Below are positions 21,424 through 37,482 of a stretch of 64,000 nt of DNA, one piece after another; positions within the stretch are counted from its first letter, which is position 1; each line of letters starts with the position of its first letter. The notes under the pieces were generated by a model that had not been told where the DNA came from, searched no databases, and was given only the letters and a program-made list of their open reading frames with translations. The position numbers were made by a program, and so were the translations under genes. This stretch comes from a phage. The stretch is taken from the sequence record PZ496581.1; one strand, 5' to 3'.

Positions 21424-21717
21424 CTAATCGTGAGATTTCATCGTCAGAACGTTAAGTTTATTCAGCGCGCTGAAGATTCCATCAGCCATTGATTTTCCAT
21501 AACCTTTACACGCTTTAATAAGTGCTCGCGGCAGATTAGTATAGATTTCAGACGGCATATGAAAATCAAATTTACTAGTCAGTAATTGATGAACTTGGAT
21601 AGCAATTTGCTCATAATTAAGTGCTCTGCGATCGTTATGGTCTTTAAACCACACTTTAATCTGTGAAGCACATAAACCGTTAATTTCATGTTTTACCGCA
21701 TCAGATGTAATGCTCAT
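21424..21717 (-). CDS. hypothetical protein
   Basis: 97-aa ORF. Confidence 0.5.
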   Translation of the reverse strand: MSITSDAVKHEINGLCASQIKVWFKDHNDRRALNYEQIAIQVHQLLTSKFDFHMPSEIYTNLPRALIKACKGYGKSMADGIFSALNKLNVLTMKSHD

Positions 21718-30884: not shown

Positions 30885-31343
30885 CTAGATTTTAATCACT
30901 GCTTTAGAAGCTTTTCCCGGTAGTCGTTTACTGTTAATAATAGCCATTCTACATTGAAGAGTCTTCATTTTGAATGCCGGATTTTCGCGACAAACTGTAA
31001 GTCCTAACCAAAGATTTCCATCAGTTATTTCTAAACGGCCTGGGCGATATTCGACACCTTCGACAAAATCTTCATCAACATCTGGACGTGCCGGCATTGA
31101 TAAAAATTCTGCAACTTCTTTAACATGATTTTTTACTTTACGAAATAATTCAAAAACGTAATTCTCATCTATTTCTCTCTGGATGGCACGATCTAAGAGA
31201 TGTTGAGAATACTTGATATGAAAGCCTGGTAGTCCAAGAGACTTTGCAGCATCTTTTATACTGGCATTTATTTTGCGGAACTCCGTTTCAAAGATTCGAC
31301 GGAGTTTATTACGGCGGATAAAAACGTCTGAATTGATAGTCAT
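30885..31343 (-). CDS. regB: endoribonuclease RegB
   Basis: 152 aa, MTINSDVFIRRNKLRR...EYRPGRLEITDGNLWLG...INSKRLPGKASKAVIKI matches T4 RegB. Confidence 0.93.
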   Translation of the reverse strand: MTINSDVFIRRNKLRRIFETEFRKINASIKDAAKSLGLPGFHIKYSQHLLDRAIQREIDENYVFELFRKVKNHVKEVAEFLSMPARPDVDEDFVEGVEYRPGRLEITDGNLWLGLTVCRENPAFKMKTLQCRMAIINSKRLPGKASKAVIKI

Positions 31344-31405
31344 TTTGATTTCTCCTCTAGTTGACAGATCTATAGTAACACAACTAGAGGAGAAGTAAAC
31401 TACTT
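31344..31405 (-). promoter_or_regulatory. regB promoter with SD-sequestering inverted repeat
   Basis: GTTTAC-N17-TACTAT; 14-nt arm TTCTCCTCTAGTTG in the spacer is complementary to CAACTAGAGGAGAA covering the regB SD. Confidence 0.45.
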
Positions 31406-31620
31406 TATTGATAAAATGGAGTTAAAGCCCAAGATTCTTTAGATACCATATTGGCGAAATGCCTCATCTCTTCGATTTGGCGACGACGCTGGTCAGCATA
31501 GTCTTCTTCGCCTTCTTCCTTACAATCTTAAAGGTCTTCTTCAAGATACTTTAAGTATTCACTACAAATTTTGTTGACCTTTTCTTGGAAGTCCAATAAC
31601 CCAGTAATAGTAGAAGCCAT
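31406..31620 (-). CDS. small ORF interrupted by an in-frame TAA (30 codons + 40 codons)
   Basis: MASTITGLLDFQEKVNKICSEYLKYLEEDL-stop-DCKEEGEEDYADQRRRQIEEMRHFANMVSKESWALTPFYQ, single frame. Confidence 0.3.
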
Positions 31621-31865
31621 TAGTATTTTTCCTCAGGCTGAAATACTGCGCGGCAAGCCCACATACTAGCTTCCTTTAGACGCTCTTTAGCACAGTTAAG
31701 TTGGGACAAAGCCGTCAGAGCTTCAGGAGTATTTGCTGATAATGCTTCTTCTGCCAGGGCGTCCAGAATAAGTCCTAAACGAACTTCAGCATCTTTGATA
31801 GCATTCACTTTGCCGATTTTGTCATCGGTGTGTGGTTTGTAACCTTTAATATCTTCAATCGACAT
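31620..31865 (-). CDS. hypothetical protein
   Basis: ORF 31620-32033; internal Met (MSIEDIKGYKPHTDDKIGK...) is the likelier start. Confidence 0.45.
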   Translation of the reverse strand: MSIEDIKGYKPHTDDKIGKVNAIKDAEVRLGLILDALAEEALSANTPEALTALSQLNCAKERLKEASMWACRAVFQPEEKY

Positions 31866-32079
31866 AAGGAATTTCCTCATCGGTGGCAAGGTCATATTCG
31901 ACCAATTGGATAGGCTCATTAATACCATATCCACGTACAGTGATATCAGTTGTCGGATAGTTTCCAGTAATATCACCCATTCTAAATGATTCAATGAATG
32001 ATTGCTCGCCTGAGCAACTAAACCAGGCGGCAAAACATTTTAAAACATCTTCAGACCCTTCTATAATCAATTTAGCCAT
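31855..32079 (-). CDS. hypothetical acidic protein
   Basis: 74-aa ORF. Confidence 0.45.
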   Translation of the reverse strand: MAKLIIEGSEDVLKCFAAWFSCSGEQSFIESFRMGDITGNYPTTDITVRGYGINEPIQLVEYDLATDEEIPYVD

Positions 32080-32442
32080 TATAGACTCTCAGTAAAGGTA
32101 CGAGCGATAACGTCGCGCTGCTGTTCTGGAGTCAGAGAGTTAAAGCGAACTGCATAACCGGATACACGGATGGTCAGCTGCGGATATTTTTCCGGATGCT
32201 TAACTGCATCTTCCAGAGTTTCGCGACGCAGAACGTTAACGTTCAGGTGTTGACCACCTTCAATTTTAACTTTAGGTTGATGTTCAATTTCAATTTCACG
32301 GGCATGCAAACCGTAGAAAATTTCCGGGTCTACAATAGCGTCCTTCTTTAAAAGTCTTAGAGACAATAATCCGGGCTTGAGTACCGTCTTCAAAATAAAT
32401 AGTGCCTTTATGTGCACCTTCAAGAATTTGATATGCTTTCAT
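32079..32442 (-). CDS. GrcA/YfiD-like autonomous glycyl-radical cofactor, apparent 1-nt frameshift
   Basis: C-terminus ...[59 protein letters not shown]; ATG at 32442 opens another frame (MKAYQILEG...[12 protein letters not shown]). Confidence 0.6.
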
Positions 32443-32448
32443 ATAACC

Positions 32449-32730
32449 TCAATTAGAAAATAAATTTATCCAAGATTTTTCTTTAATCAAAAATGGGTCG
32501 GAATTAAACGCCATTAAACTTTGAGTGATTAATCCCTTAAATGGCCCATCAATAAATTCCATTTTGAAATGCGGAATACTAGTCATCAACCGTGCATTAG
32601 GAGCAGTACAAAGAACCTGCTGCCCTGCGAACGGGCCTTTAGTCAAACGGTATCGTTTAGGTTTAAAATGGTAAATCTCGTAATTTTCTACAAGGGCCCT
32701 TTTATTGCATACTGGGCTGTTATAACACAA
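32449..32730 (-). CDS. hypothetical protein
   Basis: 93-aa ORF. Confidence 0.5.
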   Translation of the reverse strand: MCYNSPVCNKRALVENYEIYHFKPKRYRLTKGPFAGQQVLCTAPNARLMTSIPHFKMEFIDGPFKGLITQSLMAFNSDPFLIKEKSWINLFSN

Positions 32731-32755
32731 TATTCAAAAACTTCAATAGTGGTCA

Positions 32756-33295
32756 TCATTGCATTCCAATCACAAAAAATTGAGGACGAGCATTACCACC
32801 GATGCAATATTTGCTTTTGCAGCAGTGCTGTAATGTTTTAATGTGGACATTGTAAATCTTATCCATATCAGGAGCTTTAATAGGCTCGTCAATTATATAC
32901 AGAATACGAGAAAGCGTTAATCCACGGAATTTAGAACCTTCATTGCCAATAAAACTACGAACAGAATCAGTAAATAAACGGAATCGAATATCATCGCTAG
33001 AATAACGAGAAAATTCTTTTTCAATGTTGCCAGCAGAAATTTTAGCATAAGCTGAAGTATTAGAAAGAACAATAACTGTTCCGCCATCATACAGCCAATT
33101 AGCAGCAAAGTTAGTCACAGCAATTGATTTACCTGATTGTCGGCCACCGTCTAAACGAAGTGTACAGTACTGCTTGAGTACGTCTTCAAATGGTGGGACA
33201 TAACCGTTCTTACAAATTTCTTCTACTCTAGCATCAGAATGGTGTGTAAAAGCATTCATCAGGGATAGATAAGGACCAGTTAAAAATGTTCTCAT
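32756..33295 (-). CDS. hypothetical P-loop NTPase
   Basis: 179 aa; Walker A GGRQSGKS, Walker-B-like LYIIDE. Confidence 0.55.
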   Translation of the reverse strand: MRTFLTGPYLSLMNAFTHHSDARVEEICKNGYVPPFEDVLKQYCTLRLDGGRQSGKSIAVTNFAANWLYDGGTVIVLSNTSAYAKISAGNIEKEFSRYSSDDIRFRLFTDSVRSFIGNEGSKFRGLTLSRILYIIDEPIKAPDMDKIYNVHIKTLQHCCKSKYCIGGNARPQFFVIGMQ

Positions 33296-33467
33296 TTAGT
33301 TTCTCTTTTAGGTTGGGCCATTCCGTGGCACATGTTAGGTCCTTCGACTCGCTATGTAAACCCATTACCGCATTGCGCTCGACCTTATTACAGGTTGGAA
33401 AAGGTACATCACTCAGAGGACTCGACGTTCATAAGGAGAGGTTGCGTTTCCCTTTATTAGGCAAGAA

Positions 33468-33797
33468 TTATACTCTAGGCTTTTGAGCTTGTTTGGTATT
33501 GGATTCCCATGCGGCTTTGGTAATTTTGTTAGCGGCATAACCAAAGGCATTAGATAGAACACCTTTAGAGTTGAATACATCCAATCCAATAAGTACACCG
33601 GCTGTGTTAAATTTAGGAGCAAAGTACGCATTAGTTTTAGAAAGAGCTTTTTTCAATTCAGGGTCTTGAACCAAGCCATCAAAAACGCCTTTACTATTTA
33701 CTTTATATGTTACTTTGGGATTTTTACCTTCTTCGATAGCAGCTTTCTGTTCCGCAGATAATGTAACTTCAGTGATAAACTCCTGATATGTTTTCAA
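33468..33797 (-). CDS. internal-protein-like, capsid-targeting N-terminus
   Basis: MKTYQEFITE N-terminus resembles the T4 IP capsid-targeting sequence. Confidence 0.6.
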   Translation of the reverse strand: MKTYQEFITEVTLSAEQKAAIEEGKNPKVTYKVNSKGVFDGLVQDPELKKALSKTNAYFAPKFNTAGVLIGLDVFNSKGVLSNAFGYAANKITKAAWESNTKQAQKPRV

Positions 33798-33822
33798 TTT
33801 GTTCCTATTGTTTTAATTTATG

Positions 33823-34137
33823 TTATTCTTTAGGGAAGTTTTTAGAGTATGCATCATAAAGTTTATTACCAATACGACGGAAGACTTTAGCTGCAAAACG
33901 GTTTTCAGGGTTTTTAATCATGATTTGCATCATGTAAGTTCCTGCATCCGAAAGAGCTTCTTCATAATACCCATTAATTTCTTTAAGAGTCCTACGTTTA
34001 CCACCAGGACCATCAACAGTAATTTTCCATTTACCTGTAGAAGTGCGGCTCGGTGGCTCAACTTGTTCAATCCAAATATAACCACCTTCAACGCGTTGGT
34101 TGGCGGATTCTGCAATAAATTCTTTATACGTTTTCAT
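33823..34137 (-). CDS. internal-protein-like, capsid-targeting N-terminus
   Basis: MKTYKEFIAE N-terminus; GTTTAC-N18-TATAAT promoter upstream. Confidence 0.6.
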   Translation of the reverse strand: MKTYKEFIAESANQRVEGGYIWIEQVEPPSRTSTGKWKITVDGPGGKRRTLKEINGYYEEALSDAGTYMMQIMIKNPENRFAAKVFRRIGNKLYDAYSKNFPKE

Positions 34138-34200
34138 TTTTGTTTCCTTGTTTGTTTTGATAGAGTAATTATACCATATTAATACTTAAGCGTAAACCGT

Positions 34201-34461
34201 TTAAGCTTTACCGCCAGAAATAATTCCGAAGTTGTTAAAATCATATCCAATATCGTCAACATCTACTTTAGGACTTGCTACAACATAAGCAATTTCACTA
34301 CGTTTTGCATAGGTGTTGATTTCTTTACCATTGCCACCTAAGAAAGAATACCCATTACGTTTTAATGAGCCAAAGTCTTCCGCATCACCAATGAAAGCTT
34401 TAACTTTAAATTTAGGGTCTTTGGTATCTGCTTCAACGATAAATTCTTGATACATTTTCAT
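34201..34461 (-). CDS. internal-protein-like, capsid-targeting N-terminus
   Basis: MKMYQEFIVE N-terminus. Confidence 0.55.
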   Translation of the reverse strand: MKMYQEFIVEADTKDPKFKVKAFIGDAEDFGSLKRNGYSFLGGNGKEINTYAKRSEIAYVVASPKVDVDDIGYDFNNFGIISGGKA

Positions 34462-34467
34462 TTTTCC

Positions 34468-34881
34468 TTAGTAAATTGATTTACCATAGTATTTGTACCA
34501 AGTCGGACGTTGAGCAATTTTTTCATCTAAGCGTGCTTGACTTATCGCAATGGACGCTTCGGGCGGGACATAATTATTACGAAATTCGGCAGGGATGTCG
34601 GAAATATCCTGGACTGTCGTGTCCTTGATTTTGAAACCACGTTTCAAACATTCAGCGATTAGCTCGATTTGACGTAAACGTAAAAATTCGAGTTTGTCGT
34701 AAAAGAATGTTACGTGACCTGTGCCTAAGATAAATGTTGGAGAGATTTTAAAATCCTTTACACGTTTACCGTTTTGAACATGTTTACGGACTGCACCAAA
34801 TACGCGTGGTAATTCACGATACTCAGCCATAAGATGTTGGTCGGTCAGTTCAGAAACAAGTGTTAAATTGATACGGGTCAT
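34468..34881 (-). CDS. denV: endonuclease V (pyrimidine-dimer DNA glycosylase)
   Basis: [12 protein letters not shown]...[18 protein letters not shown]... matches T4 DenV. Confidence 0.94.
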
Positions 34882-34893
34882 AATTTCCTCCAA

Positions 34894-34939
34894 GTAGTTG
34901 ATGAATGTATAGTATCAAAGTCCTTGGAGGAAGTAAACA
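34894..34939 (-). promoter_or_regulatory. denV promoter with SD-sequestering inverted repeat
   Basis: GTTTAC-N18-TACTAT; arm TTCCTCCAAG complementary to CTTGGAGGAA at the denV SD. Confidence 0.4.
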
Positions 34940-35221
34940 CTATTTTTCTGAAGCGCCTGAAATATATTTTTCAAGACGTTGTTTCATCAGCGAGCCGTTC
35001 TTAGCGATTTCTTCCGGTTTATCGCACATACGTAACAAGGCTTCAAGCTTAGCGATATCGCTGGTACGTTCAAATTTGCGAGTATCTATCTTACTAGCAA
35101 GTTCAGAAATACGTGCTAGTAGACTTTCGGCTTCAACCAAAGCTGCACCTAGCTTAGTTGCAAATGTGTCAGTAGCTTCGTTAAGAATAGATTCTGATAA
35201 AAATTCACTATATGTTTTCAT
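34940..35221 (-). CDS. internal-protein-like, capsid-targeting N-terminus
   Basis: [10 protein letters not shown] at internal Met; ATGA overlap with the stop of e. Confidence 0.6.
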
Positions 35222-35706
35222 ATATACGCTTTCCAAGTTCCTGTTTTAAATGTTGAGATTACGCGTTTCGCGCGATTAGGTGTCTGACGATACCATTTAG
35301 ATTGGGCTAGATTTACTGCCGCTTCATCCCAACGTTTCTGTTGAAGCATACGAAGAGAATTAGTAAAACCAGCGACGCCTGCTACACCCATTTGGAAGAC
35401 CATATTGACCAATGCACATCGACGAACCGCATCTAAAGAATCATATACCGGTTTAAGTTTAGCATTACCCAAGATTCCGCGAACGGCTTTATCGACGTCT
35501 TCATTAAATAGCTTTTCAGCCTCATCAAGGGTAATTGTACCGTTGCATTTACGTCCGATCATTCTGTCAAGTTCAGCTTTAGCTACGGCTAAAGACGGGT
35601 TCTTTGTTACTAAATGGCCTATGCCAATCGTCCAAAAGCCTTCAGTGTCTTTGTATAAAGTCAGTCTAAGACCTTCGTCATTACGAAGCATTTCAAATAT
35701 ATTCAT
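35218..35706 (-). CDS. e: endolysin (T4 lysozyme)
   Basis: [31 protein letters not shown]... with catalytic Glu/Asp; matches T4 e. Confidence 0.96.
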
Positions 35707-35740
35707 AATACCTCCCACGTTTATAGGAGGTATTTATTAC

Positions 35741-36199
35741 TTATAGGAGGGTAGTGAGCACCTTATATAATGATTTGCCCATTACATATTCCCATTGAGA
35801 AGGTTTAATTAAAGCGAATGCATCAAATTCAGGAATCTGTCGTCCGTCTGGGAATGTATGATAGGAATTACAAACACTGTTTCTGAATTGCTCGTGCTCT
35901 ACAGGGATGGTATATAGGAACAGATGAATATTCTTATTGTCTGAGTAATGATGTTCACCTAGGTCTTTCAGGAAGGCAGGGTCATATTGTGTAAACCCAG
36001 TTTCTTCTTCGCATTCACGAATAGCGGCTTCAATAGGAGATTCACCCGGCTCGACACGTCCTTTAGGAATATCCCACCGATGAGCTAAAGAACCTTTAGG
36101 ACGAGAACCAGTTACACGCCCCATGAATAATTCTTTATCTTCGGTAAGGAAAATAATACCGGCTGATAGTTCTTTCACTTTATTTTTCTTACTCATCAT
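35741..36199 (-). CDS. nudE: Nudix hydrolase
   Basis: 152 aa with Nudix box GRVEPGESPIEAAIRECEEETG. Confidence 0.9.
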   Translation of the reverse strand: MMSKKNKVKELSAGIIFLTEDKELFMGRVTGSRPKGSLAHRWDIPKGRVEPGESPIEAAIRECEEETGFTQYDPAFLKDLGEHHYSDNKNIHLFLYTIPVEHEQFRNSVCNSYHTFPDGRQIPEFDAFALIKPSQWEYVMGKSLYKVLTTLL

Positions 36200-36440
36200 C
36201 TCGGTCCCATGATTTGGCCATTAATTCGGACATAAATTCTTCAATGCGCGTTTCTTTAGATGGACTTTCACTATTAGAGACCGCAAGTTTGTAATCTGCA
36301 ATAGGACAGAACATATCAAGGTCCATATTAAGGTCGTCTTTGATTTTTTCTTCTGACACATCTTTATCGTATGTGTACAGATAACTATCACATGATTCTG
36401 ATTTAATGTAAATTGCTATACTCATCTCAAATTCCTGCAT
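36189..36440 (-). CDS. hypothetical protein
   Basis: 83-aa ORF. Confidence 0.5.
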   Translation of the reverse strand: MQEFEMSIAIYIKSESCDSYLYTYDKDVSEEKIKDDLNMDLDMFCPIADYKLAVSNSESPSKETRIEEFMSELMAKSWDRDDE

Positions 36441-36913
36441 TCGGTAATAAAACGTTCAACTTCATTATTCTTGGCTTTTATCTTGTCTTTATGTTCTTGT
36501 AAACTACTTTTAATAAGATTAATAATGATGGCGACAGTGCCGCCGCCAATGATGCCACCAATAATACTTACGATAGTAGATGCTAATAAGATAGCAATAA
36601 TATCAACAAAACCGAAAGAACTCACCTTAGTACTAAAAAACCATACCGATGGTACAAATATAATCCATCCTGCTATCCATTGGCACTTATTGAAAAACTT
36701 TTCAAGATCAGCTTGAGTTGTTCGTATTACTTCATCGATAGGTTGATAACCGTTAATGTATCTGTTCACGATAATACCTGCTGGCTGGTCGATTTTAAAT
36801 TCTTGGCAAATACGTTTAACTAAGTAGGATGGACATCCTGTCCAATCTACTGAATAGTATGAAATACCTTTATTGCCGTCGTCTATATTAGACCAATATG
36901 TTTTGTTAATCAT
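36422..36913 (-). CDS. hypothetical membrane protein
   Basis: 163 aa with Gly-rich TM helices (IIGGIIGGGTVAII). Confidence 0.55.
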   Translation of the reverse strand: MINKTYWSNIDDGNKGISYYSVDWTGCPSYLVKRICQEFKIDQPAGIIVNRYINGYQPIDEVIRTTQADLEKFFNKCQWIAGWIIFVPSVWFFSTKVSSFGFVDIIAILLASTIVSIIGGIIGGGTVAIIINLIKSSLQEHKDKIKAKNNEVERFITECRNLR

Positions 36914-37482
36914 TACCAGCCTTCCATAGGGAATTCCAGATAAACTTGAGCGTTGACACGAATTTCATTGGTAATCTTTTTAACTCGGTCTGTATTACGA
37001 GATACACGTCCGAACCAACGCCATCCATTACTAATTGCACGAGAACCAGTGTGCCATGTTTGCCAATCAAACTGAAGAAGAGTACGGTCCGGAGCTTCCC
37101 ATTTCTCTAGTTCACCTTTTTCAATTTTTTCGAGGACTTCTTTGTGCCACTGACGATAGATAAGTTCGCCATCAGAAGTTTTAACATCTACAACCCAATC
37201 GCCATCTTTCTCTTCAACCTGTGGTTTATCCCAAGAAATACTAATATATGATTCACTGTCAATAGAAGTCGCCGGGTTTTTCTTTACTGTAAGACCTTCA
37301 CTTTCCAGCCATTCAATAGTATTTGCGCATAACTCAGAAGAACACCTCATCGGAAACCGGCAAGATTTTTCACCTTTAGCTGCGGTGTTATACATCTTTT
37401 CTAAAATACGCTTTTGCACGTTTTTAAAAATAGTTTCAGCCGATTCTTCAGATTTTTTATTCAGTTCAGTATAAAGACTCAT
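36913..37482 (-). CDS. hypothetical protein
   Basis: 189-aa ORF; GTTTAC-N17-TACTAT promoter upstream. Confidence 0.55.
   Translation of the reverse strand: MSLYTELNKKSEESAETIFKNVQKRILEKMYNTAAKGEKSCRFPMRCSSELCANTIEWLESEGLTVKKNPATSIDSESYISISWDKPQVEEKDGDWVVDVKTSDGELIYRQWHKEVLEKIEKGELEKWEAPDRTLLQFDWQTWHTGSRAISNGWRWFGRVSRNTDRVKKITNEIRVNAQVYLEFPMEGW

Follow-up and report, generated by a model that had tools for sequence, protein, structure and literature searches.

A host-identical grcA patch in the vs.6 gene of T-even phages and a private one-base frameshift in an RB69-like copy

A stretch of 64,000 nucleotides (nt) from the phage sequence record PZ496581.1 (hereafter the window, in whose coordinates all positions are given) was analysed with a focus on vs.6, a gene on the minus strand (32079..32442) that is the orthologue of T4 Y06I and encodes a GrcA/YfiD-like autonomous glycyl radical cofactor. 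The 3' part of this gene is a nearly perfect copy of the grcA gene of the host, embedded in DNA of phage type. T-even phages are strictly lytic and degrade the DNA of the host. In their vs.6, the segment that encodes the domain has probably been overwritten by homologous recombination with the grcA of the host species, with an E. coli patch in E. coli phages, a K. pneumoniae patch in Klebsiella phages and the same breakpoints in both. In addition, the copy in the window is split by one extra G. The explanation that we consider likely for the locus as a whole is that of a vs.6 gene of an RB69-like phage, with a host-converted 3' domain and a genuine loss of function through the insertion of this G.

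When positions 32000-32520 were compared by megablast with 50,697 phage records, 794 matching records were obtained. The top matches are RB69-like Mosigvirus phages (98.5-99.0% identity), nearly all of which align 520 bases versus 521 in the window. The gene order vs.8-vs.7-vs.6-vs.5-vs.4-regB is kept, with ~99% nucleotide identity to RB69 across vs.7-vs.6-vs.5. The vs.6 gene of RB69, located between vs.7 and vs.5, has 363 nt, encodes 120 amino acids (aa), carries the RefSeq label "autonomous glycyl radical cofactor GrcA" and gives a product that matches phrog_1209 (E=1.5e-62), so that sequence and position together place the locus in the T-even vs.6 orthologue group. Intact copies are also found in FL23, DCP548 and HY126, and they are the rule, given that 1534 of the 1589 phage records with a Vs.6 homologue give a single match over at least 80% of the protein. 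The copy of the window has 364 nt instead of the usual 363 and its frame is broken; with one G removed it encodes a protein (hereafter the repaired protein) of 120 aa with the very sequence of the FL23 and DCP548 proteins. Thus, the continuous open reading frame (ORF) of ~120-127 aa that characterises GrcA/YfiD is absent from the window as encoded, reappears upon deletion of one G, and is present in the relatives.

The Pfam domain Gly_radical (PF01228) was identified with 67 bits (cutoff 22.2), and the match is also obtained on the 114-aa ORF called mechanically. Against TIGR04365 (IPR011140), the repaired protein reaches 158.6 bits in an alignment of its residues 18-120, and it matches the nuclear magnetic resonance structure of YfiD (PDB 6owr) with E=1.8e-42, aligned from residue 21. 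In the alignment to YfiD, the radical glycine, encoded by the GGT codon of the RVSGYAV motif (32157..32159, minus strand), is G95 of the repaired protein and corresponds to G102 of GrcA. One result speaks against the assignment, as the TIGR04365 score lies below the NCBI cutoff for GrcA equivalogs (158.6 vs 170 bits), which is attributed to the divergent N-terminal half. The locus is vs.6/Y06I of an RB69-like Mosigvirus, a phage homologue of E. coli GrcA/YfiD, and both the gene family and its function were already known.

Within the single ORF of vs.6, the identity to host grcA changes sharply on both sides of a 175-nt tract (32089..32263, minus strand), which comprises the codons for GrcA V67/E68 to T124/E125, that is, nearly the whole structured domain. 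Over 32263-32089, 174 of the 175 nt match grcA of E. coli K-12 MG1655, and in DCP548 the match to E. coli grcA is complete (175/175). The sole mismatch in the window (32127, minus strand) is synonymous, a CCA where E. coli and the three aligned relatives (RB69, FL23 and DCP548) have CCG. At the protein level, residues 61-120 of repaired Vs.6, including the RVSGYAV motif, are identical to GrcA residues 68-127 at 60 of 60 positions. Upstream of the tract, the 5' 177 nt have 59% identity to grcA (56.5 +/- 3.4% for shuffled sequence), and the N-terminal half is still recognisably GrcA-like at the protein level, from residue 18 on for TIGR04365 and from residue 21 on for YfiD. Downstream, the last nine coding bases differ again from the host at three positions, all synonymous (GAG AGT CTA vs host GAA AGC CTG); these phage-type last three codons, together with the TAATG stop/start (32079..32090, minus strand), form the 3' edge of the tract. 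The base composition follows the same division, with GC content and GC content at third codon positions (GC3) of 0.36 and 0.24 in the 5' part and of 0.49 and 0.41 in the last 61 codons, compared with a mean GC of 0.374 for the window. A first-pass annotation, made from the sequence alone, had taken the C-terminal ~60 residues as exactly those of E. coli GrcA and had described a host-like 3' half of higher GC next to a phage-like 5' part; all of this is borne out, and the nucleotide alignment that it called for gives a stronger match to host DNA than it had guessed.

The match is specific to E. coli. Each of the 5,426 complete E. coli genomes has a match of at least 95% to the tract, and in 1,249 records the match is 174/175. 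Identity counts covering 17 phage and about 35 host sequences gave, for the last 186 nt of the gene in the window, 181 identities with E. coli, 178 with a second Escherichia species, 166 with Citrobacter and at most 165 with the other sampled Enterobacterales genera, while the mutual identity of the host genera in this stretch is 156-172/186. Nor is the patch confined to the window, as the mosaic is present in the aligned RB69, DCP548, FL23 and T2, and matches of at least 90% to the region come from several hundred records of E. coli T-even phages. In T2 (a Tequatrovirus), the same patch is found (173/175 in the tract) next to a 5' half that is only 89.8% identical to that of the window. The mosaic is therefore clade-wide in E. 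coli T-even phages, and it is older than and independent of the frameshift in the window.

The two halves of the gene correspond to two parts of the protein with distinct roles. T4 Y06I and E. coli YfiD are described as the two experimentally validated "spare part" proteins, on which the activating enzyme (PFL-AE) of pyruvate formate-lyase (PFL) puts a glycyl radical, whereupon oxygen-cleaved PFL regains activity (Wagner et al. 2001, as cited in PMC8683613). Residues 1-60 of YfiD are disordered and help to bind cleaved PFL, whereas the stretch 61-127, which bears the radical, is a duplicate of the C-terminus of PFL; this stretch alone can still undergo activation, albeit four-fold less well, and sustains PFL activity (PMC8683613). 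Of vs.6 itself, a comparative paper of 2006 noted that it is conserved and has a Gly_radical domain, and nothing else (PMC1524935). Judging from the T4 orthologue, the C-terminal domain of Vs.6 would take the glycyl radical from the PFL-AE of the host and stand in for the oxygen-cleaved C-terminus of PFL.

We propose that vs.6 is of old standing in phages, with a 5' half that evolves fast and matches the disordered, PFL-binding N-terminal half of YfiD, and that its 3' domain-coding part would have been overwritten through homologous recombination (gene conversion) with the chromosomal grcA of the host. The upstream edge of the patch may lie where pairing between phage and host DNA fails, since the upstream DNA of the two is, judging by its sequence, too dissimilar for this, and a homology-dependent exchange would have to stop there. 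At the 3' edge, the phage codons hold GAGAG, a likely Shine-Dalgarno (SD) sequence for the overlapping vs.5 (74 aa, function unknown; 31855..32079, minus strand), whose start overlaps the stop of vs.6 in the TAATG; selection would then remove those conversions in which GAGAG is overwritten.

Phages from different hosts were also compared. Within the 175-nt tract there are 21 sites that distinguish the grcA gene of E. coli from that of K. pneumoniae, and these were taken as diagnostic. In the window, RB69 and DCP548 all 21 sites are of E. coli type and none of K. pneumoniae type, and in T2 and FL23 the figures are 20 and 1. The Klebsiella phage pKp20 has 3 sites of E. coli type and 17 of K. pneumoniae type, and the "Salmonella" phage PSE-D1 (ON550260.1) has 3 and 16; in both, the first ~100 nt are 100% identical to K. 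pneumoniae grcA. In the Klebsiella Jiaodavirus phages the 5' half is clearly orthologous, with ~73% nucleotide identity to the window, and the tail encodes the LLDAVEH variant of Klebsiella GrcA with a GC3 of 0.59-0.62, versus 0.24 in their own 5' halves. Over the whole phage collection, identity to the K. pneumoniae tract is 95-98.2% in 106 records, nearly all from Klebsiella phages, and only 80-90% in 527 records that stem mostly from E. coli phages. The breakpoints are the same in the two groups. Since the diagnostic sites are mostly synonymous, this pattern cannot stem from purifying selection on the protein, and on the sequence evidence this one segment would have to have been replaced by host DNA in at least two separate events. 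Moreover, the FL23 tract is slightly closer to a second E. coli allele than to the K-12 allele (173/175 vs 172/175), a weak hint at further conversion events. The idea of a chimeric gene made by recombination with the host, put forward in the first-pass annotation, is thus supported, more strongly than proposed, by the sharp edges, the E. coli specificity and the 21 of 21 sites, but the chimera is not special to the window and predates the frameshift.

The K. pneumoniae reference allele deserves a comment, as K. pneumoniae grcA was not among the best 80 matches from the GTDB sample. It was recovered by a pattern scan of metagenomes (51 loci), with the dominant allele in 21 contigs, and over 984 nt that include its flanks this allele shows 100% and 99.5% identity to two records from K. 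pneumoniae, of which one is a chromosome of 5.37 Mb placed in the plasmid collection. That collection includes other entries of 4-5.4 Mb, evidently complete chromosomes of K. pneumoniae, E. coli and Proteus mirabilis (CP125156.1, several NZ_OL79xxxx / NZ_CP14xxxx), which is a trap for plasmid statistics.

Some individual phages are worth describing on their own. For PSE-D1 the recorded host is Salmonella, yet its tract is of K. pneumoniae type (16/21 sites, 169/175 nt), which suggests that the lineage was recently in Klebsiella and that the tract may mark host history. The Klebsiella phage vB_Kpn_AM_K4 (PP355766.1), with 288,685 bp compared with ~166 kb for Jiaodavirus, has an annotated grcA that aligns with a 186-nt probe of K. 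pneumoniae grcA, beginning at its first base, with 95.9% identity, and that may stem from a separate capture by another group of phages. In the Escherichia phage Phi1 (Krischvirus), Vs.6 has 138 aa and the tail carries 13/21 K. pneumoniae-type and 3/21 E. coli-type sites at ~81% identity, as if the tail went back to an old conversion by a host resembling Klebsiella or Enterobacter.

Several observations weigh against host tracking as a general rule. A Salmonella-type tract occurs in no phage record of the collection (best 83.8%), and since universal tracking would predict some, tracking is not universal; it was seen for only two host species. The tails are only 73-83% like any sampled host in phages of Enterobacter, Citrobacter, Kosakonia, Cronobacter and Aeromonas, in a Klebsiella Slopekvirus phage, in Phi1 and in T5-like phages, and some of the poorly matching tails (e.g., in Karamvirus and Winklervirus phages) have a phage-like GC3; we infer that these 73-83% tails are older, drifted versions. 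Also, the mechanism of recombination is deduced from the sequences. These moderately diverged tails in many phage lineages would be consistent with an old gene, and thus with grcA having been captured once, long ago, and kept host-like since then by extreme purifying selection and codon convergence, with no recent or repeated recombination, an explanation that could also draw on the near invariance of the domain protein sequence across Enterobacterales. However, the identity reaches synonymous sites and is host-specific there (21/21 of E. coli type in one group, 16-17/21 of K. pneumoniae type in the other), the host genera themselves differ by 8-16% in the stretch, and the Jiaodavirus tails depart in GC3 from their own 5' halves. 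On the strength of the host-specific synonymous sites, we rejected an ancient capture with selection and regard it as highly improbable.

As host DNA is present in phage lysates and the identity of the tract to the host is 99-100%, host reads merged into the phage contig would in principle give a similar picture. Such an assembly chimera does not explain why the same tract with the same edges is present in RB69, DCP548, FL23 and T2, with several hundred independently sequenced records matching the region at 90% or more, nor why the tract is in frame, with phage-specific codons on both flanks. This candidate was rejected given the same mosaic in independently sequenced genomes, and the probability left to it is close to nil. 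Conversion of the 3' part by host grcA is hence the origin of the patch that we retain as probable.

The frameshift that splits the copy in the window lies elsewhere in the gene. The start codon ATG (32442-32440, minus strand) is downstream of the SD sequence GAGG (32447..32450, minus strand), which by direct reading of the sequence overlaps the TGA stop of vs.7 (32451-32449). An alignment of the window with RB69, FL23 and DCP548, as well as blastn comparisons with RB69 and HY126, place a 1-nt insertion at 32342..32343 (minus strand), with GG where the relatives have one G, and in the four-way alignment the gene differs in length by this extra G only. At this place the sequence is AAAGAAGGACGC in the window and AAAGAAGACGC/GACTC/GATGC in RB69, FL23 and DCP548, which amounts to AAAGAAGAC(G/T)C or AAAGAAGATGC in the relatives. 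As encoded, the 5' ORF (32296..32442, minus strand) consists of 33 native residues (M1-E33) and 15 out-of-frame ones, ends at TGA 32298-32296 after 48 aa and has no Pfam or NCBIfam match. The remainder of vs.6 (32079..32342, minus strand) follows in the +1 frame from D34 to L120 and TAA 32081-32079 and includes the whole glycyl-radical domain. The earlier observations of an ATG with a good SD opening a GrcA-like N-terminal frame, and of an RVSGYAV part one base out of frame with it, were accurate, and both are accounted for by the single extra G; the comparison with T4-type orthologues then recommended shows an intact 363-nt, 120-aa gene in the relatives, the window alone being shifted.

The allele with the extra G was found in 0 of 183 related phage records with a 70-nt probe centred on the insertion, the best match being 69/70 with a gap. 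Exact-pattern scans found it neither in the metagenome contig collection nor in IMG/VR, the latter being uninformative with only 2 matches to the wild type. The insertion is thus private to this sequence. The frame break falls in the phage-type half, and ~80 nt separate it from the 5' edge of the host-identical patch further downstream; frameshift and patch are therefore unrelated. With the G inserted at 32343/32342, translation from the normal start would end after 48 residues and the radical domain would be left unmade by standard decoding, so that the allele is most likely a null with loss of function, as far as can be judged from the reading frames.

The first-pass annotation had left two alternatives for the break, a true frameshift or a sequencing error. 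This was the right pair; the insertion is private, and the distribution of insertions and deletions (indels) favours, without proving it, a real mutation. The window was compared with HY126, the closest available relative (~97% identity), over 42 kb of aligned sequence. Within coding sequences (CDS) of at least 130 aa, 26.3 kb were aligned and 0 frame-breaking indels were found, compared with 8 in 11.6 kb of CDS below 130 aa and 10 in 4.1 kb of intergenic DNA, at a substitution density that is alike in the three classes (2.2-3.1%). The chance of zero indels in the large CDS under uniform placement is ~2e-8. The restriction of indels to small ORFs and spacers indicates that they were filtered by selection, as expected for real mutations and unlike random technical errors. 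No stop or frame change was found in the window for any HY126 CDS of at least 130 aa, and the large genes without a full-length match are only those affected by two clean deletions. From the zero count, the technical indel rate is bounded at ~1e-4 per nt, with less than 0.04 expected in vs.6, whereas frame-breaking indels occur in small ORFs at ~7e-4 per nt.

If the extra G were nevertheless an error of sequencing or assembly, the real phage would have an intact 120-aa vs.6 and only the clade-wide mosaic would be remarkable. A miscall of GG for G is a plausible technical error, the change being one of run length from 1 to 2 bases, and the argument from the indel distribution is statistical and not specific to the vs.6 site. 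The insertion is unique among the 183 related records and missing from IMG/VR and the metagenomes, and vs.6 is intact in ~97% of the 1589 phage records. Two further private small indels lie within 400 nt, and the private small indels in neighbouring small ORFs (vs.7 +2, gp55.8 -1, ORF079c +2) could reflect either real decay or a locally error-prone assembly. On the other side stand the clean record of the larger genes, which are present intact, the confinement of indels to small ORFs and spacers, and a technical rate whose upper bound is well below the rate of small-ORF indels. Weighing these points, we consider an error unlikely and favour, fairly clearly, a real inactivating mutation.

A working protein could also be made from the frameshifted allele by non-standard decoding. 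In AGA CCC GGA, a +1 slip of tRNA-Pro on CCC-G (32328-32325) would leave six residues altered and then return translation to the vs.6 frame; CCC-G is known as a quadruplet prone to such +1 slips and here stands behind a rare AGA codon (the two together at 32331-32325), but spontaneous +1 slippage normally amounts to ~1% or less. Alternatively, ribosomes that terminate at TGA 32298-32296 could reinitiate at an in-frame TTG (32309-32307) located 9 nt ahead of this stop, which would give a 77-aa product that consists of the domain only. Its size is about that of natural GrcA2/GrcA3, whose NCBIfam models of 78-80 aa match residues 56-120, and the truncated YfiD 61-127 keeps partial activity, but the N-terminal half matters for the binding of cleaved PFL (PMC8683613). 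The putative shift site is unconserved, an SD-like or structural stimulator was not seen by eye upstream of the quadruplet, and no SD precedes the TTG. As 0 of the 183 relatives require recoding and all examined orthologues are single ORFs, programmed frameshifting was rejected, and we hold rescue by slippage or reinitiation to be very unlikely.

Other disruptions were noted in the window. The gene vs.7 (32449..32759, minus strand; function unknown, phrog_2049) is broken by a private 2-nt insertion near codon 11 (~32728; TATTGTGTTATAAC vs TATTGTTATAAC), present in 0 of 155 related phage records matching the probe. Relative to RB69 and HY126, there are a +2 (TC) in the RB69ORF079c homologue, a -1 A in gp55.8, a -1 T near the 3' end of rI.1 and a +1 C near the start of a 114-aa ORF (~13456, ~14264, ~28125 and ~38933 of the window), all of the short-repeat slippage type and all in small ORFs. 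Private disruptions of small ORFs fit a phage that is shedding dispensable functions. At ~37169-37175, ~5.85 kb of accessory ORFs are missing with respect to HY126 (~30930-36784) and RB69 (the ORF132c to e.6/frd.3 region); the alignments on either side share 7 nt at the junction, which suggests that the deletion was mediated by microhomology and fused two ORFs. At ~21438-21451, nrdC.6 (331 aa in RB69 and HY126) keeps residues 1-93 and 300-331 in differing frames, owing to a ~620-bp internal deletion.

The vs.6 of the window can be set against several known systems. It shares with T4 Y06I and RB69 vs.6 its position (vs.8-vs.7-vs.6-vs.5) and ~99% nucleotide identity to RB69, whose Vs.6 is in turn 94% identical at the amino acid level to the T2-type protein, and it differs in being split by the 1-nt insertion and in the synonymous CCA unseen in the aligned relatives. 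The phage protein has the two-part build of E. coli GrcA/YfiD (TIGR04365; 6owr), with a variable N-terminal half and a structured glycyl-radical domain; however, it is 7 residues shorter, its N-terminal half is weakly similar and random-like at the DNA level, and the gene stands in a phage context without ung/eamB neighbours. The match of GrcA2 and GrcA3 (NF008341, NF038360) to residues 56-120 reflects the domain still encoded past the frameshift, but the scores are far under the cutoffs (95.6 vs 145 and 106.6 vs 158), and there is no sign that the downstream part is translated alone.

The closest described phenomenon to the vs.6 mosaic is, by analogy, the intragenic recombination between host and phage psbA in cyanophages (Sullivan et al. 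2006, PMC1484495), where psbA and psbD are likewise host-derived metabolic genes in T4-like phages and segment exchange gives mosaics, a parallel that we infer. Unlike the cyanophages, the carriers of vs.6 are strictly lytic T-evens of enterobacteria that degrade the host DNA, and the exchange seems to involve one short, domain-sized tract with fixed edges, apparently from host to phage only. In the searchable literature on Y06I, vs.6 and phage GrcA, the E. coli-identical tract and host tracking are undescribed; the T4 genome review and Wagner et al. 2001 were outside that search, and a prior mention is possible.

The private frameshift, in a dispensable accessory gene, has annotation value only, as a reason for a pseudogene mark or a check of the reads. 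The mosaic is of wider value. T-even phages have been regarded as exchanging little DNA with the chromosome of the host, which they destroy, yet vs.6 indicates that they have acquired host DNA, presumably by homologous recombination, as an enterobacterial counterpart to the cyanophage psbA mosaics. If the exchange is recurrent and ongoing, vs.6 would be a natural and easily scored reporter of host-to-phage conversion, offering a tractable assay of conversion rates, and the patch would keep a record of the recent host of a T-even lineage that may serve as a simple marker in cases such as PSE-D1.

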